From a virus: 64,000 bases of DNA. The DNA is taken from positions 1-64,000 of IMG/VR virus record IMGVR_UViG_3300046167_000032, one strand, 5' to 3'. This document shows positions 1-55,533 of the stretch, one piece after another. The notes beneath the pieces were generated by a model. It was not told the origin of the DNA and ran no database searches. It was given only the letters and a program-made list of their open reading frames with translations. The position numbers were made by a program, and so were the translations under genes. Each line of letters starts with the position of its first letter. The stretch's first letter is position 1.

Positions 1-209
1 TCTGGGTCTTTTACTGTAGTATATCTATAGAGTAATCCATTTATATCTACACCACCAATACTAGGTAAGATAGAATCCATAGACCAACCTAATGCACCTG
101 ATGCCGCATTACCTGTAGCTCCATACGTATATGGTTCAGAGTAGGAGTAAGAAGGCAAGAGTACTAAAGATAACACCCAAGCCAATCTTAGTTTCACTGT
201 TCTCATCAA
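1..209 (-). CDS. 5' part of secreted protein (allele of 53904-54776), truncated by window edge
   Basis: Nucleotide match to 54568-54776. Confidence 0.85.
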   Translation of the reverse strand, partial: MMRTVKLRLAWVLSLVLLPSYSYSEPYTYGATGNAASGALGWSMDSILPSIGGVDINGLLYRYTTVKDP

Positions 210-693
210 ACATCTTTCTGATTACATTATTTTGATCTCGTTCGATCTCATCTTTAACTGCTTCCATATCCCATGCTAGTCTAGCTTGATCACCAACTAA
301 TCCATCTTTAGGACATGGTGTACCTGCATTCATCATAGCATCGAACACTCTTTCGTCTTGACACATTACTGATACTGCGGCTACCTTCATGCCCATGTCA
401 TACATAGTCTTAGCATTCTTGAGCTTCTCACAGTTCATGTCACGTACTGTACGACCTGCTGAGATACCTAGTATCTGTGTCTGTACCGCCCCTGCTACAC
501 CTACAGTACATAAGTCAGAGTTACTTGCACTTATCTGTGGAGATATGGCTGATGGTGGTGGGCTATTGATTGTAGTATCCATAGACCCATTAGATGTTAT
601 AGTACTGTTTGTATCAGTATATATTGTGTCATCATCATTGGCATATACAGTACTGCCAATTAGTAGGGTAAGTAATATAAGTAAGAGTTTCAT
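136..693 (-). CDS. Secreted Cys-containing protein with C-terminal membrane anchor (copy A)
   Basis: Sec-type signal MKLLLILLTLLIGSTVYA, 4 Cys, hydrophobic C-terminus; allele at 54703-55257. Confidence 0.8.
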   Translation of the reverse strand: MKLLLILLTLLIGSTVYANDDDTIYTDTNSTITSNGSMDTTINSPPPSAISPQISASNSDLCTVGVAGAVQTQILGISAGRTVRDMNCEKLKNAKTMYDMGMKVAAVSVMCQDERVFDAMMNAGTPCPKDGLVGDQARLAWDMEAVKDEIERDQNNVIRKMFDENSETKIGLGVIFSTLAFLLLL

Positions 694-956
694 TTATTAT
701 CTTGTTCTGCCATTCTCTCTACTAGGTTACGAATAGCTTTAATGTTTTCATCAATACGACCTAGAGAGACAGCTTGCATTTGTACTGTTTTCTCTAGTGT
801 ATTTATACGAGTTTCTTGACGAACTAAATCACGAGCATTATTTTTGACGGAAGAGTCTAATGAAGACACATACCATACAAGTGATATAGTTTGTAGTACG
901 ATAGCTACGATTAACGTAACTGGTACTGACTTAGAAAGATGCCAACTCTCGGTCAT
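690..956 (-). CDS. Single-TM coiled-coil membrane protein (copy A)
   Basis: TM segment VPVTLIVAIVLQTISLVWYV followed by a heptad-rich tail; identical protein at 55254-55520. Confidence 0.8.
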   Translation of the reverse strand: MTESWHLSKSVPVTLIVAIVLQTISLVWYVSSLDSSVKNNARDLVRQETRINTLEKTVQMQAVSLGRIDENIKAIRNLVERMAEQDNK

Positions 957-976
957 GGTTTAATATAATCCCCTCA

Positions 977-3334
977 TTAAGATATTCTGACCCATATTCC
1001 ACCCGGATATCGACCACTGATATTTGTAGTCATACTTGACATAAACCGCCAAGTACCTGAAGGTGCGCTTTCGACACCATGCCATACACCACCATTTACA
1101 GAACGTTCATTACCGTCTCCGCCAGTGTTCCAACCTAAACCTGCAGGTCTTAAAGTAGAGCCAGCTTTTGTAGCACCGCCCGAAATAGTTCCGTTATTCT
1201 GCAAATGATATCCAAATATATAAGTACCAACAGCACCATAAGATGTACTACCGCCAACACCTGTTAGGTTAGAGCCATCGCCTGTGTATGACGTTGCGGC
1301 TACTGTGCCTGTTACTGTGACACCACTTGATGTTGTTTCAAGTTTCTTAGAACCATTATGGTATAAGTCACACGAGCCATTTCTCTTAAATGCAGCAATA
1401 ATTTCGGAAAAATCACCGTTTGCAATCGTTAACCCACTCCCACTCATGGGCATGTTAAGCCAACCAGAGGTTAATGCATGTTTTATATAAGAGTTACTAC
1501 CATCATGGTAAATCTCTAAATCGTCATGTGTTCCGCAAATTAACTTATCGTTATCTGTTAAATTTACTCCGCCATTAAAAGATGCACCAGCATTGAAATA
1601 AGCACGACCTGCATTTGACATATCAAGGGTAAGGGCTGTGATAGTTGAACCACCATCGTTACCCATAAAGACTATATCTTTATCTTGCTGTCCTGCAACA
1701 AGTCTAAAATCATTAGCTCCTGAATTCTGCAAGAAACCTATGTTAGTTCCACCATCTTTAAAATAAATACCTCCACCATCAGCATCAAGGGTAATGTTTC
1801 CTGCAACGTCTAGTGTTAGGTCGCCAGATGGACTAGCTATAGAGCCATCTAAGTAGAAGTCTTTAAAACGGCGGCTTGTACTCCCTAAATCAACAGTATT
1901 ATTTGATGTAGTGCCATAATTGTTAGTTGGTATGATATTGCCATATCCGAAAGACAAACCAACATGATTTGTAGTTGATGAATGTATTACAAGGTCATCA
2001 GATTTAGTCCCAATACTACCTACAGTTGCGCCGTCTTTGCGGAAGTCTACAATATCACCATCGTTTGTTTGTCTATTAAAAAAAGCAACTTGCCCACCGC
2101 TTCTTGCAACGGATAAGGTAGTAGGAGAAATCTGAATGCCCTGAACACTACTAGAAGATGCAACACCTGCAGTAGTAGTACCCACCAACACGTTGCCTGA
2201 TGAGTCTATGCGCATACGTTCTGTAGATCCACCTGTACCAAGAATGGTATGTGTACCCACTGCGCCTATAAAAGCACCTCCCGAAGAACCACTATCTTTT
2301 ATAACAATATATGCGTTTGCATCACCACTGCTTTGAAAAGTAGCTACTGTATCTACTGTACCTGAGTCCACAGTCAGCCCATCGCTGGTCACTGTGCCTG
2401 TTACATCAATGCCTAAATCTGTTGTCTCAAAGCGTTTACTGTCATTATAATTAAGCTGTACTTTACCGCCTTCAGTAAACATAGCATAAGTTGCGTTAAC
2501 TGCACTATTAACAAATCGCATATTAGATGCGCCGCCAATGTATAAATCACCATTGCCGTTTTCTATTATTTTACTATCGTTACCATCATGGTAAATCTGT
2601 AAATCAGACCCAGCACCAAACTTAGCTTTGACGTTATCATTATACAGTACATCGCCTGTCATTGTGCCACCAGCTAAAGGTAACTTAGTAGCCAATGCTG
2701 TTGTGAGTGTAGAGTTATAATTAGCATCATCATTGATAGCCGCCGCTAACTCATTCAAGTCATTGAGTGTACTAGGTGCGCCACCAATAAGTGTTGTAAT
2801 TTTATCTGTAACGTAAGCTGTTGTAGCTACTTTAGTACTATCATCAGACTCAGCTTGTGTAGTTGCTGTAGTAGTAGATGCTATAGCACCACTAAGTGTA
2901 CCGCTAAGTGAACCACTGATAGTACCTGTAGCTGTTATGTTACGGAAGCCTGTTATATCTTTGTTTGTATTGACTACGACAGCTTTAGATGCTGATACTG
3001 TACCTGCAGTAATACCATCAATACTCTCTAAGTCATTCTCATTAATATCAGCACTACCTATTACAAAGCTACCACCTGTTATAGCACCTGTAGTTGTTAT
3101 AGTAGATGAGCCATTGTCTATATTACCAAAGCCTGACGTTATGCTACCACTATTCAATGCACCTGTAGAGGTTATGTTAGTTGTAGTGATACCATCGACG
3201 TATGCTTTGATAGACTGCTGACTAGCTATACCAGTAGCAGAGTCACTAGCAAGATTATCCTCATCAAGGAAGCTCTTACCATCTAAGATGTTTATCTCTT
3301 GAGCACTATCTGCTAAGTCTCTTGCCTTACTCAT
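977..3334 (-). CDS. Tail fibre 2 (allele A)
   Basis: APSTLNDLNELAAAINDD and GGTMTG fibre motifs, ERMRIDSSG repeat, C-terminal GTWR..M...WVRIS tip domain. Confidence 0.88.
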   Translation of the reverse strand: MSKARDLADSAQEINILDGKSFLDEDNLASDSATGIASQQSIKAYVDGITTTNITSTGALNSGSITSGFGNIDNGSSTITTTGAITGGSFVIGSADINENDLESIDGITAGTVSASKAVVVNTNKDITGFRNITATGTISGSLSGTLSGAIASTTTATTQAESDDSTKVATTAYVTDKITTLIGGAPSTLNDLNELAAAINDDANYNSTLTTALATKLPLAGGTMTGDVLYNDNVKAKFGAGSDLQIYHDGNDSKIIENGNGDLYIGGASNMRFVNSAVNATYAMFTEGGKVQLNYNDSKRFETTDLGIDVTGTVTSDGLTVDSGTVDTVATFQSSGDANAYIVIKDSGSSGGAFIGAVGTHTILGTGGSTERMRIDSSGNVLVGTTTAGVASSSSVQGIQISPTTLSVARSGGQVAFFNRQTNDGDIVDFRKDGATVGSIGTKSDDLVIHSSTTNHVGLSFGYGNIIPTNNYGTTSNNTVDLGSTSRRFKDFYLDGSIASPSGDLTLDVAGNITLDADGGGIYFKDGGTNIGFLQNSGANDFRLVAGQQDKDIVFMGNDGGSTITALTLDMSNAGRAYFNAGASFNGGVNLTDNDKLICGTHDDLEIYHDGSNSYIKHALTSGWLNMPMSGSGLTIANGDFSEIIAAFKRNGSCDLYHNGSKKLETTSSGVTVTGTVAATSYTGDGSNLTGVGGSTSYGAVGTYIFGYHLQNNGTISGGATKAGSTLRPAGLGWNTGGDGNERSVNGGVWHGVESAPSGTWRFMSSMTTNISGRYPGGIWVRIS

Positions 3335-3345
3335 ATTTTATATCC

Positions 3346-3762
3346 TTATGTTGGCTTTGTAGGCCATGTTACTGTATTCGGAAAACCTGCTTGATCTGGT
3401 AGGTTTAGCAAGTCAGTTCGGTATTGTGTCCACTCTGCTTGTTTAACATCTGTAAGTTCAGCCCAACGTAGAGGGTTAGTTACTATAGGGTCTACTTCTT
3501 CTACTAACCTTTGGTCACGCTGACCTCTTAGGTTTGCCGCTAGTTCTGCATCTAGCTCTGCTTGAGTAGGTGCTACATAAGCCGCATAGTCTGAACCGAT
3601 AAGTTCAAGCAATACGCTGTTGTCTACAGTATTATCTGTATCATCAGGCATTAATGAATAAGGTATCCAATCAAACTCTGGATGGTTAATTTCTAGTTCA
3701 AATGCAGTATTCTCTGCGTTTAATGATTGTGCGTTACGCACTTCTGTTATTGTTATTGTCAT
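3346..3762 (-). CDS. Tail fibre assembly chaperone-like protein
   Basis: C-terminal W..YR..LL.LP.QAGFP..V.WPTKP motif; start MTITITE has an AAGGA RBS. Confidence 0.8.
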   Translation of the reverse strand: MTITITEVRNAQSLNAENTAFELEINHPEFDWIPYSLMPDDTDNTVDNSVLLELIGSDYAAYVAPTQAELDAELAANLRGQRDQRLVEEVDPIVTNPLRWAELTDVKQAEWTQYRTDLLNLPDQAGFPNTVTWPTKPT

Positions 3763-3773
3763 TTTTATTTCCT

Positions 3774-6700
3774 TTACGATATTCTGACCCAAAGTGTTGG
3801 TGCTCTTACACCAAACTGCGCACCTGTAGCCGTACCGCCCATGTTTCTCCATGTACCTGAAAGACCACAACTTGCTGCACCATTAAAATCTGTAGCTAAT
3901 GGTCGTTGGTGTGTAGAGCTATAGTAATCTGTTACAAGCGTATTACCTGCCGCAGTAGCCCCAGCCGCTATAGATGTGCTGTTACTATTAGACGTAGCAC
4001 CTACAGTATAAGTACCAACATCGCCACGGGTTGTACTACCTCCAACACCTGTTAGGTTAGAGCCATCGCCGTAATATGTTACAGCGTGTACTTCTTTAAA
4101 ACGACCTCCTGTATAACCAAGCTTAACAGCATTATCTCTTGTTGCTCCAACTTCTGTCGAAGGAAACACTAGGTCGTCAGTAGCAAAGAAACCTAAACCT
4201 GTATCTCCCTGCCCAACACCAAGTGAACCACTGGTAACACCAATACTACCTACATCTGCCCCGCCTTTGCGGAGTTGTATAATAGTGCCATCATTAGTAA
4301 GTCTATCAAAGAAAGCCGCCGCACCACTTGCTCGTCTTGCTTGCACAAAACCTGCTTGACCTATTGTAACAGCATTTTGTGAGCCTTGTAATGTAGAGCC
4401 AATTACAACATAGCCATTTGAGTCTATGCGCATACGTTCTGATGCTGAAGTGCTAAAATGCATATGGTCATCAGAGTGGTCGTAGGTAATAATACCTCTA
4501 TTTGGTGCATTTCCAGTTGTTCCATCAGCAAAATGTATTGAACCATTACTAGCAGTACCAGTTCTAATGGTCATACCAAAATCTCCACCACTATTACCAA
4601 TAACTAAATCATCAGCAGCAGTGTTAAAATCTCCCGGTGTATCTTGTGCTATACCAACTCGCCCTGACGAGTCGATGCGCATACGTTCTGTGTTGTTAGT
4701 GCCTAGTATTAAGTGGCTGTTTGACCTGTTAAACATCCCAACGCCAGTGCCTGAGTAAAGTTCCATCGTGTCTGCTGAGGTTGCGTCTAACCAGATACGT
4801 GCATCGGAAGTGTCTGCAACGTGCAAATCAGCAATAGCGTTAGGTGAACTCGTCCCAATACCAACATTACCTGATGCGTCTATGCGCATGGCTTCTGTGC
4901 CGTTAGGTCTAAACACAATAGGATTGTTGTCTGTGTGTAACAACAAGTCATTAGCTGAATAACTACCAGATATAGAAGCCCCATCACCAACGTAAACTTC
5001 TGTGTTATAACGGGTAAAACCACTGAGGTAGAGGTCTTTCCAACGTACATTTGATGCACCTAAATTTACATTTGCATCGTTAAAAGCACCAGAGTTTGTC
5101 GCTGGGAGTAGAGCATCGGTAATTTTAATACCTTTACCAGATGTGCCGTGAGAACCAATATAAGGGTATGAGCCATTAGCACCAATACTACCTACAGTTG
5201 TGTTGTCTTTTCGGAACTGTGCAATAGTGCCATCAGAAGTTGTTCTGTTAAGGGTTAAAGGTTGTGCAGACGCACGAGTTGATATTAAATCTCCGTTTGG
5301 ACGCATTTCTGCGCCTACAGTAGAAGCTCCTACAGCACTCGTCTTACCCACCAACAAGTTACCTGATGAGTCTATACGCATGGCTTCTGTGTTGTTTGTT
5401 CGTAAAATTAAGGGTTGGTTAGTTTTAGAACCTACAAATGTACCTGTGTTGTCTGCATACAAACGCCCATATGCTGTTGTTACATCTCCAAAATCAATAG
5501 TACCATTTGAACCACTATCCACAGTCAGCCCAGTAGTTGTAAGCGCACCCGTCATTGTACCACCAGCTAGTGGTAGTTTAGTAGCAATAGAGTTTGTTAT
5601 AGTAGTACTAAATGATGCATCATCGTTTAAAGCTGCGGCTAACTCATTAAGTGTATCAAGAGAACCCGGTGAGCTATCTACAAGGTTAGCAATAGCTGTG
5701 TCTGTATAAGCTTTGATAGACTGTTGTGTGGCTAGTGCTGTTGCACTGTTAGATGCCATGTTATCTTCATCAAGTATGTTTGTAATAGACACAGAGCCTG
5801 TACCAGATAAACTATCAAACTCAACTGATCCACCAACGTCTAAGTTACCTGTCATAGTACCGCCAGATAAGTTTAGTTTTTCTGTATCATTAGCTAATGG
5901 AATCCAGTTACCTGCATGTGCGAAGTAACCTTTACCTGTTGCATGAACATGAGCAAACATACCGTGATAAGTTGATGCACTTGGTAGGTCTGATAATTGA
6001 GAATATACGTTACCGAATAAAACTTTATTGCCGTTACCATCAATGTCACCTGTCATAGTGCCACCAGCTAGACCTAAGAACCTAGCATCTGCCGCAGTCT
6101 TACTGTAGTGATCTGCAAGTTGGAATGTACCATAACCTACGATGTCAATAATATCACCAGCAGTAGCACCTGCACTTAGTACTACAGTAGAACCACTTGT
6201 AGCTGTTACGTCTGTACCAACTAAAAGTTTTACACCATTAAGATATACATCTACATAGCCTACATCATATGTTGCAGAGAACGTAGTCTGTCCTGATGTA
6301 GCAGTATATGTGTTACGACCAGATGTACCATTAACTGATGAACCTGCCGCTTGCCAACCACCCGATCCACTACGAACAAACATAATGTTACTTGTAGTGT
6401 TAAAATACAATGCACCTGCTATTAAAGCGTCACCGTCATTGTCTACTGAAGGAGCAGATGATTTAGCACCTAAGTATCTGTCGTCAAAGTCATCATAAGA
6501 ATTAGCGGCATTAGTAGCACTGGTAGCCGCAGCTGTTGCTGAGTTAGCTGAGTTTGTAGCTGATGTTGCCGCATTGGTAGCTGAAGTAGCCGCTTGAGTA
6601 GCACTTGCCGCCGCCGCAGTATTAGAACCTGCGATACTATCAACATAAGTTTTTGTAGCCGCATCAGTATTAGCAGTAGGTGTACCTAATCCAGTAATCT

Positions 6701-8385
6701 TATTGCCACCCATAGCTATAGCAGATGCCATAGTACCACCTGATTTTAGTAAGGCAGTTGTGTCAACGTAGTTCTTAGTAGCACCATCTTGGTTAGCAGT
6801 AGGATCACCTAGTCCAGTTATCTTACTTGTACCCATAGCTATAGCACCAGACATAGTGCCGCCTGATAAGTTTAACTTAGTAGCATCTTGTGCATCTACA
6901 TAACCTTTACGAGATAGCTCATCATTTGTTGCAGGGTTAGCTGTAGATGTTACAGCATTAGTACCCATTACAATGTCACCAGTTAGTGTTCCACCTGCAA
7001 GAGGTAACTTAGTAGCTATAGAATTAGTAATAGTAGTTGAGAAGTTTGCATCGTCATTGATTGCCGCAGCTAACTCGTTAAGAGTGTTTAGTGCATCAGG
7101 AGATGAGTCAACTAAAGCAGATACCTCAGTGTCTACATATCCCTTAGTAGCGGCATCTGTTGAAGCACTTGGAGCACCTAAGCCTGTTACTTTACTACCG
7201 CCCATAGCAATAGCACCTGACATAGTTCCACCAGACAGGTTAAGCTTTAGTGCATCTGCAGTATCTACATAGTTCTTTGTAGCCGCATCTTGAGCACTGG
7301 TTGGATCAGTAACATTAGCAATAGTTGTACCTGTAACATCTAGTGTACCGTTTACAGTTACATTGTTAAATGTAGATAAACCTGACCCTGCAGTTACATT
7401 ACCTGTTACATTGCCTGTAAGATTACCAGTAACGTTACCTGTGATATTACCTGTTACGTTACCTGTAAGTGGGCCTACAAGACTTGAACCTGTAATTGTT
7501 GTACCTGTGATTGCGGCTGTAGAAGAAGCACCAATAATAGTACCATCAATATTACCACCGTTTATATCTACAGTAGCTAACGTAGCCTGACCAGATGTAG
7601 AGACTGTAGTAAAGCTACCAGCAACGGCTGTTGATGCACCTATAACTGTATTGTCTATGTTACCTGCATTAATGTCTACAGTAGTTAGTGTTGATGTTCC
7701 TGTAGCAGTTAGGTCTGTCACAGTAGCAGGTGAAGCTGATGAAGCACCAATAGTTGTACCATCAATAGCACCTGCATTAATGTCCACAGTAGCCAGAGTA
7801 GCAGTTCCTGTAGCACTCAGTGTAGTAAATGAGCCAGCACCTGCAGTTGTACCACCTATAGGTTACGTTATCTATAGCACCAGAGTTAATGTCTACAGAA
7901 GTAATAACACCTGTAGTAATATTAGCTGTGCTTAGAGTAGTTGTTCCAGTAACACCTAATGTACTTCCTATAGTAAACGTACCTGCAACTGCACCATTAA
8001 TATCTACATCTAGTGTATCTATGTGTGCTGTACCATCTAAGTATAAATCTTTAAACTCTAAACCAGATGTACCTAAGTCTATATCATTAGTTATTACAGG
8101 TATAATAGCCCCATCAGAGAAGCGTATTTGTTCTACTGCGGCTGAAGATACCTCTACAAAGACACCTACTTGATTAGTAGCAGTGTTTATGACAACTTTG
8201 TTTAGTGCGTCAACATCACCAATAAGAGGAATGTAACCACCTTCTCCTATTGATCCATCGTGTTTGTGTCCACTTGACACTGCAAATGCATCACGGAGTT
8301 TGTTGTACTCGGCGTTAATAGGTGCTGCACGAAGTGTAGCTGTTGGTATTATGTCTGCTGAAGACTGTCTTACGTAACCTGCCAA
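3774..8385 (-). CDS. Tail fibre 1 (allele A), split by one extra base at about 7861
   Basis: ORFs 7777-8412 and 3774-7787 join into the protein that is intact at 59035-63813. Copy A reads ACCTATAGGTTACG and copy B reads ACCTATAGTTACG. TTG start at 8385 follows AGGAG. Confidence 0.88.
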
Positions 8386-8389
8386 AGTA

Positions 8390-9931
8390 TTATCTCCTGT
8401 CGGCTGTCTCATACGTCAAGGCTACTGCCTGTATAGTATGACTTGCATTTGTATTATTCGTAACGTAACTTATCGAAACAGAGTTACCTGATCCAGATAT
8501 ATTTGTAAGTGTTTTAGGTGAGGGATTACCATCATATATACCACCTGCTCCATATATAGCTGTACCATAAATTGAAGCCGCACCCTCTGTAGTAAACTCA
8601 TAGTTAGTAGGGTTGCTTGTCCCTGTGTCATCGTAGTCATAAGAGACACCAACAAAAACTTCTGTATCACCCTCTGATTTTAAGTAAGTGTTTACTTTAT
8701 GTACTATCTTACGTACTTCTGGGTCTTCCATATAGTAATAGGGTGTTTGATATAAACTAAAGATAGAGTTACCACCAAAGCTATTACCTTTTTCTTGTCT
8801 ATGTACTCTACCAGAACCATCTCCATGTATTACATGTTCAAATTGTCCTATGTATCCACTAGCTACACAATTTGCTTCCATACCAGTAAGCTGACTATAC
8901 TCAAAAATACTCTGCTTATTCTGACTCTTACGTATACCACCTATTAAAGATAGAGAAGCATCGTTTTTAAAGAAGAATCTAAACTGTGACTTCTTCCTAA
9001 GTACTACAATAGCTATATCTTCTATTTGTTCTGATAGATAATAATTATCAAATATAGATTGTATCTCTTTAGATACAGTAGCAAGTTCAACATCACCAAT
9101 TTTATCAGTACCAGAAACAGGACGTATACCATCAGGTCCTAAGAAAAGTAAATCACCACCAAACTCTACCACAGAATCAGGTGCAAGGCAACCCATATTT
9201 GAAGTAACATTTTCTAATATAAAATTAGACGAATTATTACCTGTTAGTCTTTTAATATTATTAGAACCAAAAATATATAATTGATTACGAAACTTTTTAA
9301 CTGCTGTTATAGTATAGCCTACATTAATAACACCAGCACCATTAGCAGGGCTAAAATCAGAATAATTTAATGGAGCACTAAAGTATAGGTTGTATGGCTC
9401 AGAAGAATCCCCACACAAAAATAAATGAGATGCAAACTCTTCAGAATACTTAGGGTTGTTTGGAGCTTGTGCGTGTGTTATCTGTGTGTATGCAGTACCA
9501 TCATATGTTGCCGCAGGGTTGATACCATCTGTAAGTAGTATAACTTCTCCTGACCAGTTAAAACTAGTAAAACGAATCCTACTAACATTAGTCATGTCAG
9601 GATTACCAGCTTCTGGTATAGCTACCCAAGAACTATTAGAGTTCTGCCATCTATATAGATAGTCATGACCAGATGTAGGTTTTCTACAGGCAAATATACC
9701 ATCGTGTAAATTACCATTGACTGTAAGGCCAAGTATAGCACCTGTACCGGGAACAGTACCATAGTCGTTAGCATAACCACTGATACGACGATACCCACCC
9801 GAAAGGGCAGGTTCATAGTTAATCATTCTTATAGCACTACCCGATAAGTTAGTAGCTTGGGTTAGCGGGTCTATATTAGTGACCAACCCCCCAGCACAAA
9901 CTGATAAGTATGTACTTAGTCTATCTGCCAT
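8390..9931 (-). CDS. Tail tubular/nozzle protein B-like (podovirus tail)
   Basis: 513-aa beta-rich protein between adaptor and fibre genes. Confidence 0.65.
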   Translation of the reverse strand: MADRLSTYLSVCAGGLVTNIDPLTQATNLSGSAIRMINYEPALSGGYRRISGYANDYGTVPGTGAILGLTVNGNLHDGIFACRKPTSGHDYLYRWQNSNSSWVAIPEAGNPDMTNVSRIRFTSFNWSGEVILLTDGINPAATYDGTAYTQITHAQAPNNPKYSEEFASHLFLCGDSSEPYNLYFSAPLNYSDFSPANGAGVINVGYTITAVKKFRNQLYIFGSNNIKRLTGNNSSNFILENVTSNMGCLAPDSVVEFGGDLLFLGPDGIRPVSGTDKIGDVELATVSKEIQSIFDNYYLSEQIEDIAIVVLRKKSQFRFFFKNDASLSLIGGIRKSQNKQSIFEYSQLTGMEANCVASGYIGQFEHVIHGDGSGRVHRQEKGNSFGGNSIFSLYQTPYYYMEDPEVRKIVHKVNTYLKSEGDTEVFVGVSYDYDDTGTSNPTNYEFTTEGAASIYGTAIYGAGGIYDGNPSPKTLTNISGSGNSVSISYVTNNTNASHTIQAVALTYETADRR

Positions 9932-10642
9932 TTAAATAATATTCTTATATAAAGAGTTACCTGATCTATGTATTACAGTTGAACGTAAATAGTCTTTGCT
10001 ATCTACTAGTAATCTACGCATAGATTTAATGCCCGTTCTAAACTTAGCATCGTGTAACTGTGCTGATTGCTCATTAGACCTAAAGTGCATTAGGTACATC
10101 ATAGCACCGTCAAGTACTACATGTTTAAATCTATCGGGAATAATACACACATCAGTACTTAGCACTAGATCAGCAGGTACTTTCCAGTATCTGTATTCTA
10201 TAATGTAAGTATTATCTGGTACAGGTGAAACACCAAACTTATCTTCTTGTGTTTTATATACTACATCAGGTTTTTGATAACCATCTGTTCCAGCTACATC
10301 ATCAAGACTTCTTCTATCACTTATGTATGATTCATACGAAATGCTAGGCAGTTGTGTTGGATGTGCAGATTGTGCATTAGTTAAATAAAATGTTTCCCAA
10401 TCTGCTTTAGAATAGTCAGAAGGGAAGTCATAGGTCTTTGTGCCTACTGCAAGTGTTTGTTCGTAAGTTACTAATGTGAAAGGCCACTCTTGTGCCTCTT
10501 GTAGTATCTCACGTACTGAAGAATTAATAGAGTCTTTAGCTAGTGACTGTACATTTTTAGTTGTGGCAAAATCAGCCTCACCAATCTCAACCTCGTTAAG
10601 ACGACGAAGTAACTCATTCACTAGATTTATATACGAAGCCAT
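9932..10642 (-). CDS. Tail tubular protein A / head-tail adaptor
   Basis: N-terminal YINLVNELLRRLNE and later EWPF pattern; follows the capsid gene. Confidence 0.7.
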   Translation of the reverse strand: MASYINLVNELLRRLNEVEIGEADFATTKNVQSLAKDSINSSVREILQEAQEWPFTLVTYEQTLAVGTKTYDFPSDYSKADWETFYLTNAQSAHPTQLPSISYESYISDRRSLDDVAGTDGYQKPDVVYKTQEDKFGVSPVPDNTYIIEYRYWKVPADLVLSTDVCIIPDRFKHVVLDGAMMYLMHFRSNEQSAQLHDAKFRTGIKSMRRLLVDSKDYLRSTVIHRSGNSLYKNII

Positions 10643-13190: not shown

Positions 13191-16100
13191 TCATTTATTC
13201 CTAAACATTTTGTATGCACCTACTAAGTAACAGATTGGTTCTAATATAGCTCTATAGAAACGTCCTAACTTATCACGTTTTTTATTTTGCATCTCTGCTC
13301 TAAGGTCTGCAGTACGATGTCTCGCAATATTCTCTAGTGTTTTACGCACATACTTATAATCTTTTTGATATGCAAGTTCTACTAAAGGTAGGAATAATGT
13401 ATGGTATCCTACTTCATGTTCTTTTGTCAAGTTATTATTTGAGTATTTTAACCACACAGCCTGACGGTATGAACCAAAGCCATAAGACTCATTCATAGCA
13501 GTACATACTATTTTACTACTACTACTATTTCCTTTATTACCACTATCTTTATTGCTTTTTGTTTTTGTTACAGGTGCTGCTTTAGTTTCTTTCTTTGGGA
13601 ATGTACGAGTTAATACATTAGTTCCCGGTTGACTAGTCCATACTGCACCTGCCATATTAGGATCACCACCACTAGCATCTGTACCAATTTTAGCTTTAGC
13701 AGTTTTAGATAACTGATTCTTTTTAGCTGGTGTGACAGCAGTTTTCTTATTCGTACTTGCAATACTTGCTTCTTTGTCATTAAACTTACCAGCAGGTTTA
13801 TATTTATCAGCACCTTCAAATACTCTTTCGTAAACTGTAGATTTAACTACTGGTACATCATAATCATCATTTCTATAAACAACTCTATTTTCTGCATTGC
13901 GTAATGCAAACCCTTCTTTATCTGCATACACACCTTGTGATTTACCATCGGTAATAGCACCAACAGCATAACCATCTACTGCAGTACCACCCGTTGTTGC
14001 ATACCTTCTGTTTAAGTCAGCGGCTTGTGCTAAATTTGCGTCTGGTAAGTTTTGCCATGCTGTAGCTTGATTAGAATCACCAGCTTTATATGTTTGAGCA
14101 GGTGTAGATGTTTTAGAACCTAAACCACTTGGGCGCATCTTAGGTGTTGCTGATGTAATACTTAAAGGTATTTCTGAAGCATTAGTTCTAGCTGCACGAT
14201 CCGCATCTGTAGTATCTACTAATGAAAAATTAGTTCTAGCGGCTTTTTCATCCTCAGTGTTAATTTGTGGAAATGGGCTATATCCATCATCTGCTGTTAC
14301 TTGAGATGGGTCTGCGCCTCTTGGTGGTATAGGTGCTGTATAACCTTCACCATAGTTAGAAGCAGAACCACCACCAACAGTAGCTGTTGTCGGAAATACC
14401 TGAGAGTTTCTTTGTAAATCAGTAGGTGTATATGTACCTGCTCTGGGGTCTGAAGCAGTAAATGCAGGATTTGTAGCGTCTGTTGGGAAGTTATATACTT
14501 GATCTGGAAAAACATCAGGTTGTTGATCTGCTCTTGGTGGTAGCATATCGTTATTAAAAAATTTATTAGTGGCTTCTAAGTCTTGTGTGGGAGGTAATAA
14601 ACTATCTATATAATTATCTTTACGTGTTACACCCCTAGTTAAATTAAAAACATCTGTACCCATTATATTATCTGCAGTTGGTTTTTTACCAGCTAATTGA
14701 TTTTTAAGGGCTTCATTAACACTATTAGTTGGTAGTTGTGTAACTGGGAAAGTACTAGTTTCACTAGGGTCATTACTGGCATTTGTAAATGGTAAAGTAC
14801 TGGTTGCACTAGGATCACCGTATGCGTCAGTACGTATAGGTGGAGTTGGTCTATAACCATCATCTGCTGTTTGGGGTGGTGGTAAAAACCTATCTTTTTC
14901 ACTACTTGCTAGTGTGTAAGGATCAGGTGTAGATGTAACTATAGGAGCTTCTAATTGTTCTAAACCAGTTAACTCTGGTGTAATAATAGGCGTAGTAGTA
15001 CCTGTTGGTAGTTTAGCACCCACACCTGCTACAGATACTGTAGATGCACGTTTGGCTTGTTCTTCTGGTGACATATCTCTGTAAGTTGTAAGTGGAGTAC
15101 CTTGCAATGCTTTAACAGCACCTACTGGTGCAACATCAGCCATTGCTTCTCTAGCTAAGTCATAATCATCTGGAAGAACACCTCCAGTTGGTGCAAAGAC
15201 TGCATCTGATAAAGCTTGTCGTTGCTCTTCTGTGACATTGCCCCTTACTTTATTTGTAAGCATCTCTGTCATTTGTTGATCTGTAGTAGTTGCAGGTACA
15301 TCTTTCAATACGGATTCTACAGCATCTTGTACAGAAACAGTAAGTTCAGTAGCACCTGACGTTGGGTTTACTCTAAATATTGGAAGATCAGTACTTGTTT
15401 TCTTATCTACTTCAACACTAGTCTTTTTAGCAGCTTCAATCTCTTCTGGTGTTTTGCCTAATAAACCACCTATAAAATCTACTACACCACCAATTAATCC
15501 ACCAGAACCTTTTGCTAACAGACCAAGAACCTCTGTAAACTCACCCTTTAAATCCTTTCCAATAATACCAGAGGCTATTCGTTTATTAATAGTATCTTGT
15601 ATTTTTTTACTTTGATGTGACATAGCCATCATACCAAAAATACCTAAAGGTCCCATAAAACCCATTGCAACTTTTACAAGAGTACCCTTTGTACCCGTTT
15701 GATCTTGCGCAAGTTTTAACAACTCTTCATTACTAATATTATCATAATCAACAGGTTTAGGGGCTACTGCAACGTCAGTACGATCATCACTACCTCTTGA
15801 ACGTATTTCTTGCGTAGCGGCATTAGTATCTGCGACTATATCATCGGTTGGTGTAGTACCTGTACCTACAGAACCTTCACCTGTATACAAGAAGTACCCA
15901 TCTGGAATAGGGAATGTAGCTACACCACCTATGAATGGTATCATAATATTATTACCAGCTGCATTACGATATTCTTTGTATTCAATAGCAGCTTCACCCA
16001 TAAGTTTCTTGAAGTCTATTGTAGTACGTACAGGTTGTGTAATCTCTGGTGTGAGTCTACGAGTAGCTGTTGTAGTAGGTGCAACAGGTTGTCCACCAGT

Positions 16101-16529
16101 ATATACAGGTTCTTGTCCAGTACGTACAACATTTGTAGTACCAGTAGTTAAACCACCAACAGCCATGTTAAGTTCACCACCATCATCATCAGGTTCACCA
16201 CTAGCTACAATAATTAAATCATCCATACCAAAAGGTAAATCGTCTGGCATTGTAGCTTCATCACTATTACCCATTTGTCCCATAGCTTCCATTTTCTTTA
16301 GACCCATCTTAGCTTCTTGTCGTAAGTTCATAAGCTTCTCAAGCCCGTGGTATCTTGTAACCTCTTCAGATAGAATAAACTCACCTTTACTTACGTTAGC
16401 TTCAATATCATCACGAACACCTTCACGAGTTCCACCAATAGGAACTTCATTACCAGACTCTTCGTCAATCATACCGCCCTCATCTTTTAAGCCACCACGT
16501 GCGAATAGTTCCATTTGTTTTTCCATCAT
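13191..16529 (-). CDS. Large putative virion protein with Pro/Thr-rich middle
   Basis: 1112 aa between portal and scaffold; DDIEANVSKGEFIL motif; C-terminal KIVCTAM domain. Confidence 0.6.
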   Translation of the reverse strand: MMEKQMELFARGGLKDEGGMIDEESGNEVPIGGTREGVRDDIEANVSKGEFILSEEVTRYHGLEKLMNLRQEAKMGLKKMEAMGQMGNSDEATMPDDLPFGMDDLIIVASGEPDDDGGELNMAVGGLTTGTTNVVRTGQEPVYTGGQPVAPTTTATRRLTPEITQPVRTTIDFKKLMGEAAIEYKEYRNAAGNNIMIPFIGGVATFPIPDGYFLYTGEGSVGTGTTPTDDIVADTNAATQEIRSRGSDDRTDVAVAPKPVDYDNISNEELLKLAQDQTGTKGTLVKVAMGFMGPLGIFGMMAMSHQSKKIQDTINKRIASGIIGKDLKGEFTEVLGLLAKGSGGLIGGVVDFIGGLLGKTPEEIEAAKKTSVEVDKKTSTDLPIFRVNPTSGATELTVSVQDAVESVLKDVPATTTDQQMTEMLTNKVRGNVTEEQRQALSDAVFAPTGGVLPDDYDLAREAMADVAPVGAVKALQGTPLTTYRDMSPEEQAKRASTVSVAGVGAKLPTGTTTPIITPELTGLEQLEAPIVTSTPDPYTLASSEKDRFLPPPQTADDGYRPTPPIRTDAYGDPSATSTLPFTNASNDPSETSTFPVTQLPTNSVNEALKNQLAGKKPTADNIMGTDVFNLTRGVTRKDNYIDSLLPPTQDLEATNKFFNNDMLPPRADQQPDVFPDQVYNFPTDATNPAFTASDPRAGTYTPTDLQRNSQVFPTTATVGGGSASNYGEGYTAPIPPRGADPSQVTADDGYSPFPQINTEDEKAARTNFSLVDTTDADRAARTNASEIPLSITSATPKMRPSGLGSKTSTPAQTYKAGDSNQATAWQNLPDANLAQAADLNRRYATTGGTAVDGYAVGAITDGKSQGVYADKEGFALRNAENRVVYRNDDYDVPVVKSTVYERVFEGADKYKPAGKFNDKEASIASTNKKTAVTPAKKNQLSKTAKAKIGTDASGGDPNMAGAVWTSQPGTNVLTRTFPKKETKAAPVTKTKSNKDSGNKGNSSSSKIVCTAMNESYGFGSYRQAVWLKYSNNNLTKEHEVGYHTLFLPLVELAYQKDYKYVRKTLENIARHRTADLRAEMQNKKRDKLGRFYRAILEPICYLVGAYKMFRNK

Positions 16530-31500: not shown

Positions 31501-32622
31501 TGCCTAAGCTACCTAGATATGTACAAGAGAGAGTATCACCTCACGGGGTGATCTCTTACAGATTTAATCCGCCGCAGAACTTAGTGGATGAGGGTGTGGT
31601 ATCACGTCAAGAGTATGGCACTGATCTCAAGGAAGTGCGTAGTATTGTGAAGGAGTTGAACGCAGACATTGACCATTGGCGTGAACAAAAAGCGACAGTG
31701 GTACAGATAAAGCCATCAAGTAAGGTGACAGATTTGATTAACTACTACTATCAATCTAATGATTTCAATATGTTACGAGACACAACTAAGGTGGATTACA
31801 GATACTTCCTAACCATACTCCATCAGACTATGGGTGGTAAGAAGTACGACAGTGTAACAACTAAGGTTGCCAAGCAAGCATATGAAGGAGTGGGTTAAGC
31901 GTGGTATTAGTTTCGCTAATCATGCTGCAACATGTGCAAGTAGGGTATACAACTACGCTATTGACATGGAACATGCCACACAAAATCCTTGGACTAGCAT
32001 CAAGCGTAAGGCATTGCCACAGCGTAAGGTTGTATGGTCACATGGTGATGTTGTCAGGTTTCTTGATTATTCGTACAGCGATTTTGACTACAGGAATGTG
32101 GGATTGATTGTGCACATGGCATATGAATGGTGTCAACGTCTAGGTGACATGCGTACACTGAAGTGGGAGAACATTGACTTGCGTACACAGCGACTAGAGT
32201 TAGAGCAGAGTAAGCGTAGGGCAGATGTATCACTACCAATATCAGATGATCTATGCCACATGCTGAATGAACAGCGTAATGACTTTGGCTTTCAAGATTA
32301 TGTAGCACCACACCCACGACCAATGGGCGGTAAGTACCAACCATATGCAATGGAACGTTTGTCTAAGGTAGGTAGACGTGTCATGAGATTAGCTAAGTTA
32401 CCAGAAGAGTTACGTCTAATGGACTTACGTAGAACAGGTGTGACACAGATGGTTGATGCAGGTGTACCAATTGGACAAGTGATGTCTGTTACTGGACACA
32501 ATCATGTGTCTTCTGTGCAACCATATATGAAACATACATATGATTCTGCAAATAATGCCTTGACACAGAGAAATGTAAGTGTACAATCGAGTGCAGCGAG
32601 TAACATAGAAAGTGATACATAA
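31500..32622 (+). CDS. int: Tyrosine integrase/recombinase, split by one extra base at about 31886
   Basis: CQRLGD (R), QSKR (K), MDLRRT (R), VTGH (H), QPY (Y); TATGAAGGAGTGG gives Y-E-E-W when one base is removed. Confidence 0.88.
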
Positions 32623-49621: not shown

Positions 49622-52048
49622 TTATCCTAAGATTGCACCTATACCCTTACCAAGTAAGGTATCGCCACCGATAGGTGATGTAAACATTGTAGCTACTAAA
49701 CCACCCCATGCAGATGCAGAGTTATAGTCAGCTTGTAGTGCCGCAATATCTGCTTTAGCATCTATCTGTAGTTTAATTGAAGCTAGATCAACAATACGTT
49801 GTCTTTCATTTTCAGCACTATTCCATGCCCACTCCATACTATCAGAGTAGTATGACCACAAATCATTGTATGCAGTATTAGATATGTCAAGTACATTCTG
49901 TGCATTGATTTCATTAGCACGATTGATTGCTACAGTATCTGCAGTAGCAACTTGTCTACGCCACTGTGCATTATTCTGATCAATAACTAATCTATTTTGT
50001 GCATTGAACTGATCACGTTGATTCATCATCTCTGCCGCAAATCTATTCTGTGCGTTCATCTCACCTGCATTAAACTGGTTCTGTGCATTAGTTTGTGCAG
50101 TATTAAACTGTGATGTTTGTGCGGCTAAGTTAGCAAAGAACTGATCGGTTTGATTTTGACTTGATGCATTAAACTGTGCCGCCGCATTAGTTGCCGCTTG
50201 ATCTGTAAACAAAGACTGTACTTGTTGTTGTGATTTAAACAACTCAGTTTGTTGTATGTTACTCAAGTTAGTTAAGTCCATTTGCATAAATGCTTGTGCA
50301 TTCATTACAGCCGCTTGTTGTCGATTACTTAGGTTAGCCATATCTAAGTTAGACAATGCCGCTGCTTCTGCCATTACCATAGCTTGTCTATTAGACAGGT
50401 TAGCTATATTAACAGTGTTAGCATTACGACTATTCTCCAAAGCAACCTGTTGTTCAGCAGTGAAGTTCATATTAGCTACGTCACTAATCTTACTGGCATT
50501 CATAACACGTGATTGGAATGCCTGATCAAACTCTTGACCCATGAATGTTGCACGTTGCTGTGCCGCAAGCATAGCACGTTGTTGTCTGTTTGACAAGTTC
50601 TGTGTTTCAAAGGATGCTTGTGTCTGTGCATCAGCCATTGCGATAGGTAATGCTGACTCCATAGCGGCCTGTACAATGGCTTGACCTGCCATACTACTAG
50701 CACCTAAGCCACGTGCCGCCATAGTCGCTGTAGCAGTCCTCATAGCCCCTGCAGCCCATGCTGGTGTAGCTCCACCCTCAAAGTTTGTCATTAATGTGTC
50801 AAGTTGCCCTGCCACAGTAGCTTTCTGAGATGGTGATGCAGTAGCCGCTTGCACTTCTTCTGTAAATTTAGCTGCAGTTTCAGCATTTGCTACACCACTT
50901 ATAAGTTCACCATTTTCAATCTTACGCTGTACTGGGTTCTCCATTAATATGGATGTACCTTGTGCCGCATCTAACTCACTTACACTAGTTGCAGTTGCAG
51001 TCTTAGCATCTACAATAGCTTGTGGATTAACTGTACCTGTAGCCGCTTGTGTTTGTGCCAGTGCTTTTGCTACTTCATCTGCCGATGTAGCCGCAGTCAT
51101 AGTAGCCGCATCTGTAGGTGCAACAGCACCAGCTTGTGCAACAGTAGCTGTAGTTACAGGAGTAGATATATTACCTTCAACCTGCCCACTACGAGGATCA
51201 ATTATCTGATCACTAGTTATCTGCGTACCTACAGGTTGTACTGTAGCACCATAGGCTAGTGATGGATCAATAGCTCTATTAGCAATTAACTCAGATACAG
51301 ATTGACCTTCATATGCACCTGTCTGTGGTACACCACCGACTGAAGTACTTGTACTTTGAGTACTGTTTGCGTTTATATTTGGCGTAGTATCACTGGGGCC
51401 GGGACCTCTTGCAATAGCATCTGCAATAGCCTTAGCTTCAGCAGGTGATTTTACATCACGTTGTGCCTGTCTACTGACAGCCTGATCATATGTGTAGTTA
51501 TATGTCTGTGGGCTTGTATTAATTGTACCCATATTACCTTGCGCATCTATAGGACCTGTACGTGGGTCTAAAGTTCCTGATTGTTTAGCTAAATAAGCTT
51601 CATATGCTTTATCTTGCGCCTTACCAATACTACCAGAACCCATCTGACCAAAGTAAGGGCTATAGTACATATCTTGAGTACCCATAGTATTACTATTTTT
51701 AAAGTCTGTGTACTCTTGTGAATTGAAAAAGTCTTGGTTTATTTCTGGTAATCGAGGGCGGTTTAATATACCATCAGTCTTTGAACCTTCACCTGCAAAC
51801 ATGTTAGGTCTAATATTCATTTGAGAACCAGTAGCTGATGTAGTCACACCACCAACAGCATAGCTAGGTTTCTTTACCATACCACCCTTAGCCATTTCCA
51901 TAGCTTTGTTTTGATACATATTCATCTTACTCATTTTATCAGGGTTCTGATTTAAGTAATCATTAAAGCCACTCATATCACCTTGATAACCTAAGTTACC
52001 TGCAATGCGTTGCATAGCCTGTGGTTTAAATCCTTTGAACTGCATCAT
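49622..52048 (-). CDS. Putative internal virion protein, Ala/Gln/Asn-rich
   Basis: NLSNRQQ and QFNA repeats; Gly-rich hydrophobic C-terminus. Confidence 0.6.
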   Translation of the reverse strand: MMQFKGFKPQAMQRIAGNLGYQGDMSGFNDYLNQNPDKMSKMNMYQNKAMEMAKGGMVKKPSYAVGGVTTSATGSQMNIRPNMFAGEGSKTDGILNRPRLPEINQDFFNSQEYTDFKNSNTMGTQDMYYSPYFGQMGSGSIGKAQDKAYEAYLAKQSGTLDPRTGPIDAQGNMGTINTSPQTYNYTYDQAVSRQAQRDVKSPAEAKAIADAIARGPGPSDTTPNINANSTQSTSTSVGGVPQTGAYEGQSVSELIANRAIDPSLAYGATVQPVGTQITSDQIIDPRSGQVEGNISTPVTTATVAQAGAVAPTDAATMTAATSADEVAKALAQTQAATGTVNPQAIVDAKTATATSVSELDAAQGTSILMENPVQRKIENGELISGVANAETAAKFTEEVQAATASPSQKATVAGQLDTLMTNFEGGATPAWAAGAMRTATATMAARGLGASSMAGQAIVQAAMESALPIAMADAQTQASFETQNLSNRQQRAMLAAQQRATFMGQEFDQAFQSRVMNASKISDVANMNFTAEQQVALENSRNANTVNIANLSNRQAMVMAEAAALSNLDMANLSNRQQAAVMNAQAFMQMDLTNLSNIQQTELFKSQQQVQSLFTDQAATNAAAQFNASSQNQTDQFFANLAAQTSQFNTAQTNAQNQFNAGEMNAQNRFAAEMMNQRDQFNAQNRLVIDQNNAQWRRQVATADTVAINRANEINAQNVLDISNTAYNDLWSYYSDSMEWAWNSAENERQRIVDLASIKLQIDAKADIAALQADYNSASAWGGLVATMFTSPIGGDTLLGKGIGAILG

Positions 52049-52080
52049 TCTTCTATCTTCCTTATGTTGTCATGTGACAA

Positions 52081-52109
52081 ATTATACTCTATCTTAATAT
52101 CTGTGTCAA
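52081..52109 (-). promoter_or_regulatory. Perfect sigma70 consensus promoter
   Basis: TTGACA-N17-TATAAT. Confidence 0.85.
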
Positions 52110-52117
52110 GCATTAAC

Positions 52118-52618
52118 TTAATCTGCTAGTGGATTATCTAGTGCACGTTGTAATTTAGTTACTAGTCTATCTTCTAGTTCTTTCATTTCTGAAGACTGTG
52201 ATGCCCTTACACGTTCTCGTTGATTCTCAAACCTTATTTCAGCATCATCTATCATAGTACGTACCTTGTCTTCATTGTCACGTACCATATCCTCAATACG
52301 ATCTGTCTGTTGTTCTATTCTTAACAGATCATCTTTCAGACCATTCTTAATATCTCTAGTGTACTCTACACTCTCTTCAACCTTCTCAGATATACCAGAC
52401 ACTTTAGCATCCATTACATCCATTTGTTGTTGATATGCACCTAAGTCTAACCCTGCAACTTCTTCTATCTTTTGGTATAGAGTGAAGCCACCATACAGAC
52501 CACCAACTACTGTAGACAAGAAAGCTATTATAGCTAGTACTGAACTTGCTGTTAGTTTTACACCACCAGCTTTTACTTCTTTATCTGCTAGGCTTTCAAC
52601 GTTTGTTAAATCTACCAT
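52118..52618 (-). CDS. Membrane-anchored coiled-coil protein
   Basis: TM VLAIIAFLSTVVGGLYGGF followed by a long coiled coil ending DNPLAD. Confidence 0.75.
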   Translation of the reverse strand: MVDLTNVESLADKEVKAGGVKLTASSVLAIIAFLSTVVGGLYGGFTLYQKIEEVAGLDLGAYQQQMDVMDAKVSGISEKVEESVEYTRDIKNGLKDDLLRIEQQTDRIEDMVRDNEDKVRTMIDDAEIRFENQRERVRASQSSEMKELEDRLVTKLQRALDNPLAD

Positions 52619-53034
52619 TAGTTCTCAAAGTCCATACCACCTGTCTGTTGCAGGTTCTTTAATGCTTCTAGCTCATTACGTAGTTGTTGTATCTCTAGTC
52701 TACGTTGAGCTAACTCTACCTGATACAAGTCGTCACAATTAATACGAGACTTAGGTTTATCAAGAGGTATAACAACACGAGCATATAATCCTACATCTTT
52801 ACTTTGGTGTGCAAAACTTGATGGACTAAATGTACCACCTACATTGTTGACTACACCTGTAACACCAAACTCTAAGTTTACACCACCACCTACAGCATTA
52901 CTACAGTCTAAGTTACCTGCCCTAAATCTATCTGACTGATAGTTCATTGGTGGGTTAGGTAGTGTTAGAGCTAGGTTGTTACTCTCAGCTACTGCTGAAC
53001 TAGCTACGACACATAATGCCAATGCTAATCTCAT
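52618..53034 (-). CDS. Secreted protein with C-terminal coiled coil
   Basis: Signal MRLALALCVVASSAVA, Cys pair, amphipathic beta-strands VNLEFGV / VGLYARVVIPL. Confidence 0.75.
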   Translation of the reverse strand: MRLALALCVVASSAVAESNNLALTLPNPPMNYQSDRFRAGNLDCSNAVGGGVNLEFGVTGVVNNVGGTFSPSSFAHQSKDVGLYARVVIPLDKPKSRINCDDLYQVELAQRRLEIQQLRNELEALKNLQQTGGMDFEN

Positions 53035-53417
53035 GCAGGTTCACCATCAATACGAGAGCATATCCTAGAGACAACCAAAGTTCTTGAGTCTGTCTTTTTT
53101 CTTACCTTTGATGTAGTACAAATATATGTAGCTTCATCTAAATCTAACTCACGTATATACACAATAAAATCTTTACGTTCTTTATAACCTACTTTAATGA
53201 TCCTATACTTAGATGAGAATGGTAGGTTTGTAAAGTTTAAATCAAATAAATCTATCTGATAATATTCTACATCTTCTCGTGAGTTAAACAAAGACATCTC
53301 TGCTTTAACTACACCTGCAACATACGTAGGTTTTAACATTGGGTAGGCTGGTGTCATTTCATGTGCAGAAACAACAGTAGCCCAACCCATAAACGCTATG
53401 ATTAGTTTATTTAGCAA
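53031..53417 (-). CDS. Secreted Ig-like protein (periplasmic pilus-chaperone-like)
   Basis: TTG start, signal ...WATVVSA, HEMTP...SLFNSR pattern, Cys pair. Confidence 0.5.
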   Translation of the reverse strand: MLNKLIIAFMGWATVVSAHEMTPAYPMLKPTYVAGVVKAEMSLFNSREDVEYYQIDLFDLNFTNLPFSSKYRIIKVGYKERKDFIVYIRELDLDEATYICTTSKVRKKTDSRTLVVSRICSRIDGEPA

Positions 53418-53895
53418 TACAAGTAGCCTGTACAACTGCAGTGTACGTACCTCCCGGCAAAGGTTTAGCTGAACCGTAGACTGCACTTGATGCAGTAGAG
53501 AACCATGTTGAACCTGCAAGAGTTAGGTTAAAGATAGTGGTACTATCTACTACAACTTTTGCATCATTATAAGCTGACATTCCTGACACAGAAGTTTTAG
53601 TTACACTTGTACTTCCTGTCCATGCAAGTGTATCTGTAAGGTTGGGTGAAGAGCTAAAGGATGTAGGGTGAGTTATGTTTGCAGTGTATGAGTCTGCAAT
53701 AGATACATCAAACCTAATTACAGGTAGTACACCACCATCTGAAGGTGTTGTGCTTAACTTACTGGCAATAGGGTTGCCGTATACACCAGCTTTATCTGCT
53801 TGAATAACACACTTGGCGGCTACGCTTCCTGTAATATCTACAGTAGCAAATGCTGGTAATGCACAAAGTGATAGTAGTGCTGTTAAATATTTCAT
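53407..53895 (-). CDS. Secreted fimbrial-subunit-like protein
   Basis: Signal MKYLTALLSLCALPAFA; VDITGSVAAKC N-terminus; PGGTYTAVVQAT C-terminus. Confidence 0.55.
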   Translation of the reverse strand: MKYLTALLSLCALPAFATVDITGSVAAKCVIQADKAGVYGNPIASKLSTTPSDGGVLPVIRFDVSIADSYTANITHPTSFSSSPNLTDTLAWTGSTSVTKTSVSGMSAYNDAKVVVDSTTIFNLTLAGSTWFSTASSAVYGSAKPLPGGTYTAVVQATCIAK

Positions 53896-53903
53896 TGTAT
53901 TCC

Positions 53904-55520: not shown

Positions 55521-55533
55521 GGTTTAGTATTCC

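Follow-up and report, generated by a model that had tools for sequence, protein, structure and literature searches.

The window analysed here, i.e. the first 64 kb (1-64000) of the 80,374-nucleotide (nt) IMG/VR virus record IMGVR_UViG_3300046167_000032, contains two tail-fibre genes, hereafter fibre 1 and fibre 2, each present in two copies that are nearly identical over their proximal part and then diverge at codons for the same peptide, KLPxAGGTMTG. Taken as a whole, the data are probably best explained by two co-occurring phage strains whose fibres combine a constant proximal part with a replaceable distal part, the joins being located in a conserved linker zone around this peptide. When the contig is compared to itself with blastn, positions 1-25159 and 54568-80374 appear as the same genome region at 95-98% identity, and the record corresponds to about 1.47 head-to-tail genome copies with a repeat period of about 54.6 kb. 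Since the two copies, A and B, differ by single-nucleotide polymorphisms throughout and by three replaced blocks, and since a true terminal repeat would be identical, they are regarded as two strains in one contig, joined either as a mixed concatemer or through an assembly path. The phage is an HMO-2011-type podovirus whose nearest cultured relative is Roseobacter phage CRP-1. This label, already given in a preliminary description of the sequence, holds in view of the coat protein, 85% identical to that of CRP-1 and 76% to that of Puniceispirillum phage HMO-2011, and of a gene set comprising Pol A, a DnaB-like helicase, a ribonucleotide reductase (RNR) and a tyrosine integrase; the repeat period fits such membership as well.

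The points where the two copies part and rejoin were located by blastn, run both between 1-10000 and 50001-64000 and on the contig as a whole against itself, and then by base-level alignments. Three conserved blocks were thereby delimited, 5547-8572 matching 60976-64000 at 97.7%, 2580-3351 matching 56976-57734 at 92.0%, and 1-966 matching 54568-55530 at 95.5%, with only short or weak blastn matches between them. Located between the two replaced segments, the constant part of fibre 2 is thus more diverged across copies (92.0%) than the flanks (95.5% and 97.7%). All genes of the fibre region are on the minus strand, to which all coordinates of fibre features given below refer. Both fibre genes are about 92-98% identical across copies as far as the KLPxAGGTMTG codons, beyond which fibre 1 is unrelated and fibre 2 weakly related up to the start codon that opens the next conserved gene. 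Fibre 1 contains six motifs of the GGTM[TS]G type and fibre 2 a single one; the fibre-1 junction is at the last of the six (GGTMTG codons at 5547-5564 in copy A and 60976-60993 in copy B), and that of fibre 2 at its sole copy (2654-2671 and 57050-57067). More precisely, the fibre-1 identity run ends within the motif at GGTGGTAC, where the last two synonymous third positions already differ, and nothing can be aligned beyond; such an abrupt loss, from 97.7% identity to no detectable similarity inside the motif codons, reflects replacement rather than gradual divergence. In fibre 2, identity falls directly after the motif and is followed by about 75 nt at roughly 70-75% similarity (KFGAGSDLQIYHDG). 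On the other side of the replaced segments, similarity is regained ahead of the next start codon, by 17 nt at most for fibre 2 (ATG at 3334/57718) and by about 10 nt for an open reading frame (ORF) of 88 amino acids (aa) whose ATG is at 956/55520. This holin-like ORF (690-956), which marks the right border of the fibre-2 replacement, has a weak holin match (phrog_1296, E-value 8e-5). The preliminary description had proposed that near-identity ends at the AGGTMTG codons in both fibres and resumes at the start of the next conserved gene; both statements are confirmed, and its coordinates were right within a few bases. According to our own arithmetic, the chance of both boundaries falling at the motif is roughly 1% x 3% under uniform placement, counting a boundary within a few residues of the sole motif in 645 aa and of one of the six in 1601 aa.

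One could envisage that the distal parts were never exchanged and instead became hyper-divergent in place, through diversifying selection or a diversity-generating retroelement, in line with the fact that all seven fibre-2 DNA alleles (7/7) open their distal part with a homologous unit of about 95 aa that can still be aligned despite low identity. We consider this extremely improbable. Identity drops from about 97% to undetectable within a few bases, the distal segments differ in length, in domain content (Peptidase_S74 versus a chaperone-dependent tip) and in gene number, and the same pieces are found in other genes and phages at 91-97.5% nt identity. Besides, no template/variable repeat pair was seen, although no search aimed at a reverse transcriptase was made.

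Larger allele sets, made of loci from IMG/VR at the DNA level (five alleles of fibre 1 and seven of fibre 2) and of entries from a protein database (23 and 37 alleles, respectively), further support replacement at or near the motif. Among the five fibre-1 DNA alleles, the conserved blocks of all pairs (10/10) end between -10 and +26 nt from the motif end, and those of the seven fibre-2 DNA alleles between 0 and +92 nt past the motif. At the protein level, the constant parts of the 23 fibre-1 alleles are 88-100% identical, and 193 of the 253 pairs (76%) break at -3 to +2 residues of the motif end, 56 at +4 to +20, and four later. For the 37 fibre-2 alleles, whose N-termini are 94-100% identical and whose breaks were placed by anchored alignment, 200 of the 666 pairs (30%) break at -10 to +2, 385 (58%) at +10 to +26 and 81 elsewhere, so that 88% break at the motif or 10-26 aa downstream. 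The later mode is found at +21 to +25, directly after a second motif, IYHDG, in the context ...DLQIYHDG; the fibre-2 junction is hence a zone with two preferred points, and not one point. Nearly all alleles of both fibres have differing distal parts and lengths, only one pair of the 23 fibre-1 alleles sharing the same one, and each fibre has at least about 20 different distal cassettes in the population. In addition, the methionine or leucine of GGT(M/L)TG co-varies perfectly with the cassette type in the 23 fibre-1 alleles: GGTLTG is paired with NLDVGG, NLNVGG, GLNVSS and NLSLGD, and GGTMTG with ALTTTG, TIAGFE, DISFGD and NISHAS, which indicates that the crossover often occurs within the motif. 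Finally, an all-against-all blastn of 276 loci, counting ends from -20 to +25 nt of the motif start, places 26 of the 227 distinct 3' ends of high-identity blocks near the motif, against 1.4% of positions, and only two of the 218 5' ends, these counts being dominated by two sites in close relatives and not representing independent events. The expectation that breakpoints would cluster at or near the motif, rather than being uniformly spread, was therefore borne out across these pairs and loci.

These sets also bear on whether the cassettes or their junctions might be chimeras made during assembly at repeated k-mers. The contig is itself an artificial or mixed concatenation of two strains, and repeats bearing the motif are natural branch points of an assembly graph. 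However, the same constant-to-cassette junctions recur in dozens of independent assemblies (JGI, ENA, Logan, TARA) and all fibre ORFs remain open across the junction; moreover, chimerism may scramble the pairing of cassettes and genomes but cannot create the divergence point. An artefact of this kind is thus very unlikely.

The same joins are found outside this backbone. A separate lineage (L090, L091, L094) has another upstream sequence (...GTTADAALPK[AS]GG...), yet its members diverge at the motif too. One of its loci (L090:3074-3348) is a copy, at 97.5% nt identity, of a unit of the copy B fibre 2 (56805-57079) that runs from 12 nt before the motif to ...KL[AD]TTS (...KLATTS in copy B), so that the shared patch is exactly one structural unit between two conserved linkers, carried by different fibre backbones. 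Similarly, the start of the copy B fibre-1 cassette, TIAGFESTGIDD (FESTGIDD), is present in 25 other ORFs, in 21 of which it stands directly behind the motif or a one-residue variant of it, with varied upstream sequence and a motif positioned anywhere from residue 42 to 965. Within fibre 1, the constant part varies in repeat number (62275-62424; alleles P0127, P0135, P0136 and P0142): two 44-aa units are missing from some alleles, with endpoints at a repeated ATK[NG]|YVDT and at two GGT(L/M)(T/S)G copies, respectively. The latter case is an in-frame deletion of 44 residues from motif to motif, by which KLPLA|GGTLTG...KLNLS|GGTMSG becomes KLPLAGGTMSG, the nt junction lying inside GGTGGAAC|TATG.

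As regards the nature of the motif, the segment preceding it (LVDSxPxxLDTLNELAAAL...) matches solved fibre chains (9d93 gp4 and 6v8i gp68), and the unit following it matches two consecutive repeats of the cyanophage P-SCSP1u fibre (8i4m, E-value 9e-5). In an AlphaFold2 (AF2) model, the motif itself is a low-confidence linker, preceded by helices and followed by a seven-strand beta unit with a predicted local distance difference test (pLDDT) score of 78-86. Based on these structural matches and on the modelled linker, the motif most likely is an interdomain linker. The pre-motif module of fibre 1 (about 80 aa) and the N-terminus of fibre 2 are paralogous, with 51-57% aa identity, and fibre 2 seems to be paralogous to the final constant segment of fibre 1. 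The N-terminal motif ILDEDNMASNSATALATQQSIKAY of fibre 2 (57580-57690) has an internal copy in the copy B fibre 1 (61130-61215, aa 876-905), just upstream of the junction, and is also found in orf22 of PDB entry 9efk. The phage CRP-1 has a fibre-1 homologue with two motif copies, and no fibre-2 homologue with the motif was found in it.

Several points weigh against exchange at the linker zone. As a single historical junction is common to many pairs, the pairwise breakpoints do not count as independent events; moreover, selection by itself would suffice to produce one fixed boundary where a conserved anchor adjoins a variable tip. In fibre 1, none of the five upstream motif copies forms a cassette border. 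The codon usage of the motif, in 105 distinct instances, is about that of the background of the same genes, with nothing showing that its DNA promotes exchange. Because it comes from the same sample as locus L087, the L090 patch might in principle have arisen as a chimera during assembly, and metagenomic contigs cannot prove cassette linkage within one virion. The AF2 model, with a mean pLDDT of 59.5, is that of a monomer of a trimeric fibre and was used for secondary structure and confidence only; a Foldseek search with it returned nothing below an E-value of 0.49, as expected for a single chain of an interdigitated trimer.

Part of these points could be accommodated by a passive boundary, with illegitimate joins occurring at random places and selection keeping those at the border between anchor and tip, the motif DNA playing no part and the recurrence of the border in both fibres reflecting the shared ancestry of the pre-junction module. 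The background-like codon usage, the paralogy of the two pre-junction modules and the position of the motif in a modelled interdomain linker all agree with this scenario. However, several independent comparisons place crossovers within the 18 nt of the motif, the 44-residue deletion runs exactly from one motif copy to another, and the patch shared by L090 and copy B extends from 12 nt before the motif to a second conserved motif. As homology-guided joins fit these three observations better than random joins filtered by selection, a purely passive boundary is judged rather unlikely.

Nor do the data favour a site-specific switch, either by invertible segments of the Gin/Cin/Min or shufflon type, or by a tyrosine integrase acting on the motif DNA. 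It is true that Mu and P1 have their crossover site at the constant/variable border of the fibre gene, and that an ORF of the Phage_integrase family is present at 31867-32622. This ORF is however about 25 kb away, on the other strand and among early genes (Pol A, helicase, RNR). Besides, no inverted repeats of at least 20 nt were detected in 1-9000, each fibre has one cassette per genome copy, with no alternative cassette in the opposite orientation, the motif DNA varies at silent sites, and the junction zone is about 35 codons wide rather than one point. Such switching is accordingly hardly conceivable. The ORF itself encodes a 251-aa tyrosine recombinase, whose presence suggests a temperate potential for this type of phage. 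As the motif codons are no more uniform than the background, the conservation of the motif is at the protein level and not that of a DNA site, and no DNA homology beyond the need of the peptide was found in the 105 instances.

While exchange at the linker zone thus remains the probable explanation, the term "universal" socket, applied to the GGTMTG codons in the preliminary description, has to be abandoned. Most fibre-2 pairs break 10-26 residues downstream, mostly after IYHDG, and other junctions are used, such as those after ALTTTGLTV (WA versus L086) and after GNVGIGTSSP (P0124 versus P0133), as well as TTSxGxxVTG and ATK[NG]|YVDT; the GNVGIGT peptide is also found within cassettes. The start of the copy A fibre-1 cassette has its closest relative (L180) behind TTSTGIDVTG, not GGTMTG. 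The copy A fibre 2 and the copy B fibre 1 share a 299-nt module (1748-2046 and 60235-60533, 91% identical) whose borders are not at GGTMTG and which lies 141 and 88 residues beyond the motif, respectively. Whole cassettes common to the fibre-1 and fibre-2 junctions at high identity were sought and not found, the sharing between the two being limited to internal sub-modules of up to 78% aa identity. In addition, a sister group of fibre 2 (P0042 and others, about 65% identical) has no motif at all, which makes it unusable as a replicate and also argues against universality. Neither the motif nor the fibre bodies could be assigned to a Pfam or NCBIfam family, with E-values up to 10 allowed for the motif segments, and a full-text literature search returned no relevant paper on GGTMTG or its variants.

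The following model can be proposed for the exchange. In each strain, two fibre genes combine a constant part close to the virion with a distal part that can be replaced and that brings its folding helper, in the form of a Phage_tail_APC chaperone or of a built-in S74 chaperone with a separate Gly-rich ORF behind it. Ordinary homologous recombination within the long conserved flanks would transfer whole cassettes between close relatives. Non-homology has its left edge in a zone of about 35 codons with KLPxAGGT(M/L)TG at its centre, a peptide that would link an alpha-helical coiled-coil segment to the first beta-rich distal unit. This linker is conserved at the protein level in many unrelated fibres; in-frame joins at that place would be expected to give foldable trimers, and its short identity (about 10-30 nt) might seed both the rarer transfers across backbones and unequal crossovers between motif copies. 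Because GGTMTG is one of several linkers, together with IYHDG, TTSxGxxVTG and GNVGIGT, fibres would be reshuffled one structural unit at a time.

Turning to the content of the cassettes, cassette 1 spans 3352-5546 in copy A, where it carries the distal part of fibre 1 and a chaperone gene, and 57735-60975 in copy B, where it carries a distal part with S74, a Gly-rich ORF and a small ORF. The copy B fibre 1 (59035-63840) is a protein of 1601 aa, constant over aa 1-955 and variable over aa 956-1601, with a C-terminal Peptidase_S74 intramolecular chaperone. That of copy A is split into a main ORF (3774-7787; 1337 aa, of which 1-747 are constant and 748-1337 belong to the cassette), which ends in ...WVRIS and matches many PHROG tail-fibre families, and an N-terminal piece of 211 aa (7777-8412), separated from it by an insertion of 1 nt near 7862 that copy B lacks. 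This insertion (GTAACCTATAGG versus GTAA-CTATAGG, at 7855-7870 and 63285-63295) may reflect either a real frameshift or an error of sequencing or assembly. Cassette 2 spans 967-2653 in copy A, with the distal part of fibre 2 and without a chaperone gene of its own, and 55531-57049 in copy B, with both a distal part and a chaperone. Fibre 2 has 785 aa in copy A (977-3334; constant aa 1-227, cassette aa 228-785, end ...WVRIS) and 645 aa in copy B (55781-57718; constant aa 1-223, cassette aa 224-645).

The claim that chaperone and adhesin genes travel inside the cassettes stands for its first half. Genes of the Phage_tail_APC family of tail-fibre assembly chaperones, all above the Pfam cut-off, are located inside the cassettes both in the window, i.e. 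in cassette 1 of copy A (3346-3762, likely ATG at 3762, 138 aa) and in cassette 2 of copy B (55534-55761, 75 aa), and in five other loci (L006, L007, L009, L087 and L088). The distal part is thus accompanied by a cognate assembly chaperone or, for the copy B fibre 1, by a built-in S74 domain, and relatives repeat these two layouts, namely a tip with an APC chaperone, or S74 with an ORF of 320-370 aa. Each genome copy has a single Phage_tail_APC chaperone, behind fibre 1 in A and behind fibre 2 in B. In copy A, the tips of both fibres are of one family (...GDGSNLTGVGGST...WVRIS) and 42% identical, and the single chaperone may therefore serve both. The adhesin half of the claim is suggested by Pfam and PHROG matches. 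It concerns the 323-aa Gly_rich_2 protein of cassette 1 in copy B (58060-59031), whose likeness to a GP38-family ORF (L088:3959-4951) is limited to the N-terminal 55 aa, 80% identical, the rest being unrelated; a role as gp38-like adhesin is hence plausible and unproven. This pair has a constant head and a variable body, a plan also seen in the fibres. The 102-aa ORF of cassette 1 in copy B (57738-58046) matches phrog_7759, of unknown function. The cassettes may, judging from the same kinds of match, determine host range. Very narrow host ranges have been reported for the CRP phages, in a paper that, concerning fibres, notes only that tail-fibre genes vary (PMC6918029).

Outside the fibre genes, the third replaced block extends over 13202-15724, corresponding to positions 68631-70811 of the contig (L005:4631-6811), inside a 1112-aa ORF on the minus strand (13191-16529). 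Between A and B, the N-terminal part of about 370 aa of this ORF is 65% identical, the middle is unrelated, and a 50%-identical patch is found near the C-terminus. No GGTMTG motif is present in this block.

From a broader point of view, one near-clonal backbone is seen with at least about 20 alternatives for the distal end of either fibre, and the resolution of their junctions to a few codons provides a concrete and testable rule for the sites where fibre modules can be swapped. This explains why such genomes are mis-assembled or fragmented at fibre genes, and also constitutes a warning, as host prediction from the conserved fibre part or the genome backbone will fail. It is tempting to go one step further and to speculate, tentatively and in the knowledge that the proposal may well be wrong, that GGT(M/L)TG, IYHDG, TTSxGxxVTG and GNVGIGT form a set of "standard connectors" shared across unrelated marine phage families, with single structural units pooled and recombination preferentially seeded, rather than just tolerated, at these places. 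If true, natural module exchange could be predicted from these motifs, which could also provide engineering with plug-in points.

The closest parallel is found in the T-even phages, in which, as reportedly described by Tetart et al. in 1998, distal fibres and adhesins are shuffled at conserved motifs, i.e. the His boxes of gp37 and the glycine-rich motifs of gp38. In both cases, short peptide motifs bracket variable segments, mosaic breakpoints fall in the motifs and specificity modules are swapped with chaperone or adhesin genes, and natural mosaic breakpoints at a short conserved motif, as in recombination of the His-box type, were indeed found here. The present system differs by its motif, KLPxAGGT(M/L)TG, by another fibre fold, by its occurrence in a podovirus of marine bacteria and by two paralogous fibres sharing one junction motif; its exchange is read from sequence comparisons, and the effect on host range is putative. 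The tail-fibre genes of P2, Mu, P1, lambda and p15B are likewise reported to be built of constant and variable parts (Haggard-Ljungquist, 1992; Sandmeier, 1992 and 1994). They resemble those described here by a constant N-terminal part, exchangeable C-terminal parts, a downstream assembly chaperone and pieces common to unrelated phages; they often add an invertase and inverted repeats, whereas here 1-9000 is free of inverted repeats and the exchange is between genomes of a population. The fibre gp28 of P-SCSP1u (8i4m), two repeats of which match the first post-motif unit (DNxKAxFGxGxDLxIYHDG ... TTSxGVxVTG), is related through this repeat unit only, and strands of the G-x-T-V-T-G type, not GGTMTG, precede its repeats; to our knowledge, no exchange has been described for it. 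In marine Alteromonas phages, a tail fibre and its cognate chaperone move together between distantly related phages (PMC10579305). Compared to that study, whose text does not contain the words "motif" or "breakpoint", the junction is resolved here to a few codons and over dozens of alleles. The exchange of modules at conserved linkers is a principle long established for coliphages, of which the fibres described here are a motif-bounded instance in a marine phage.

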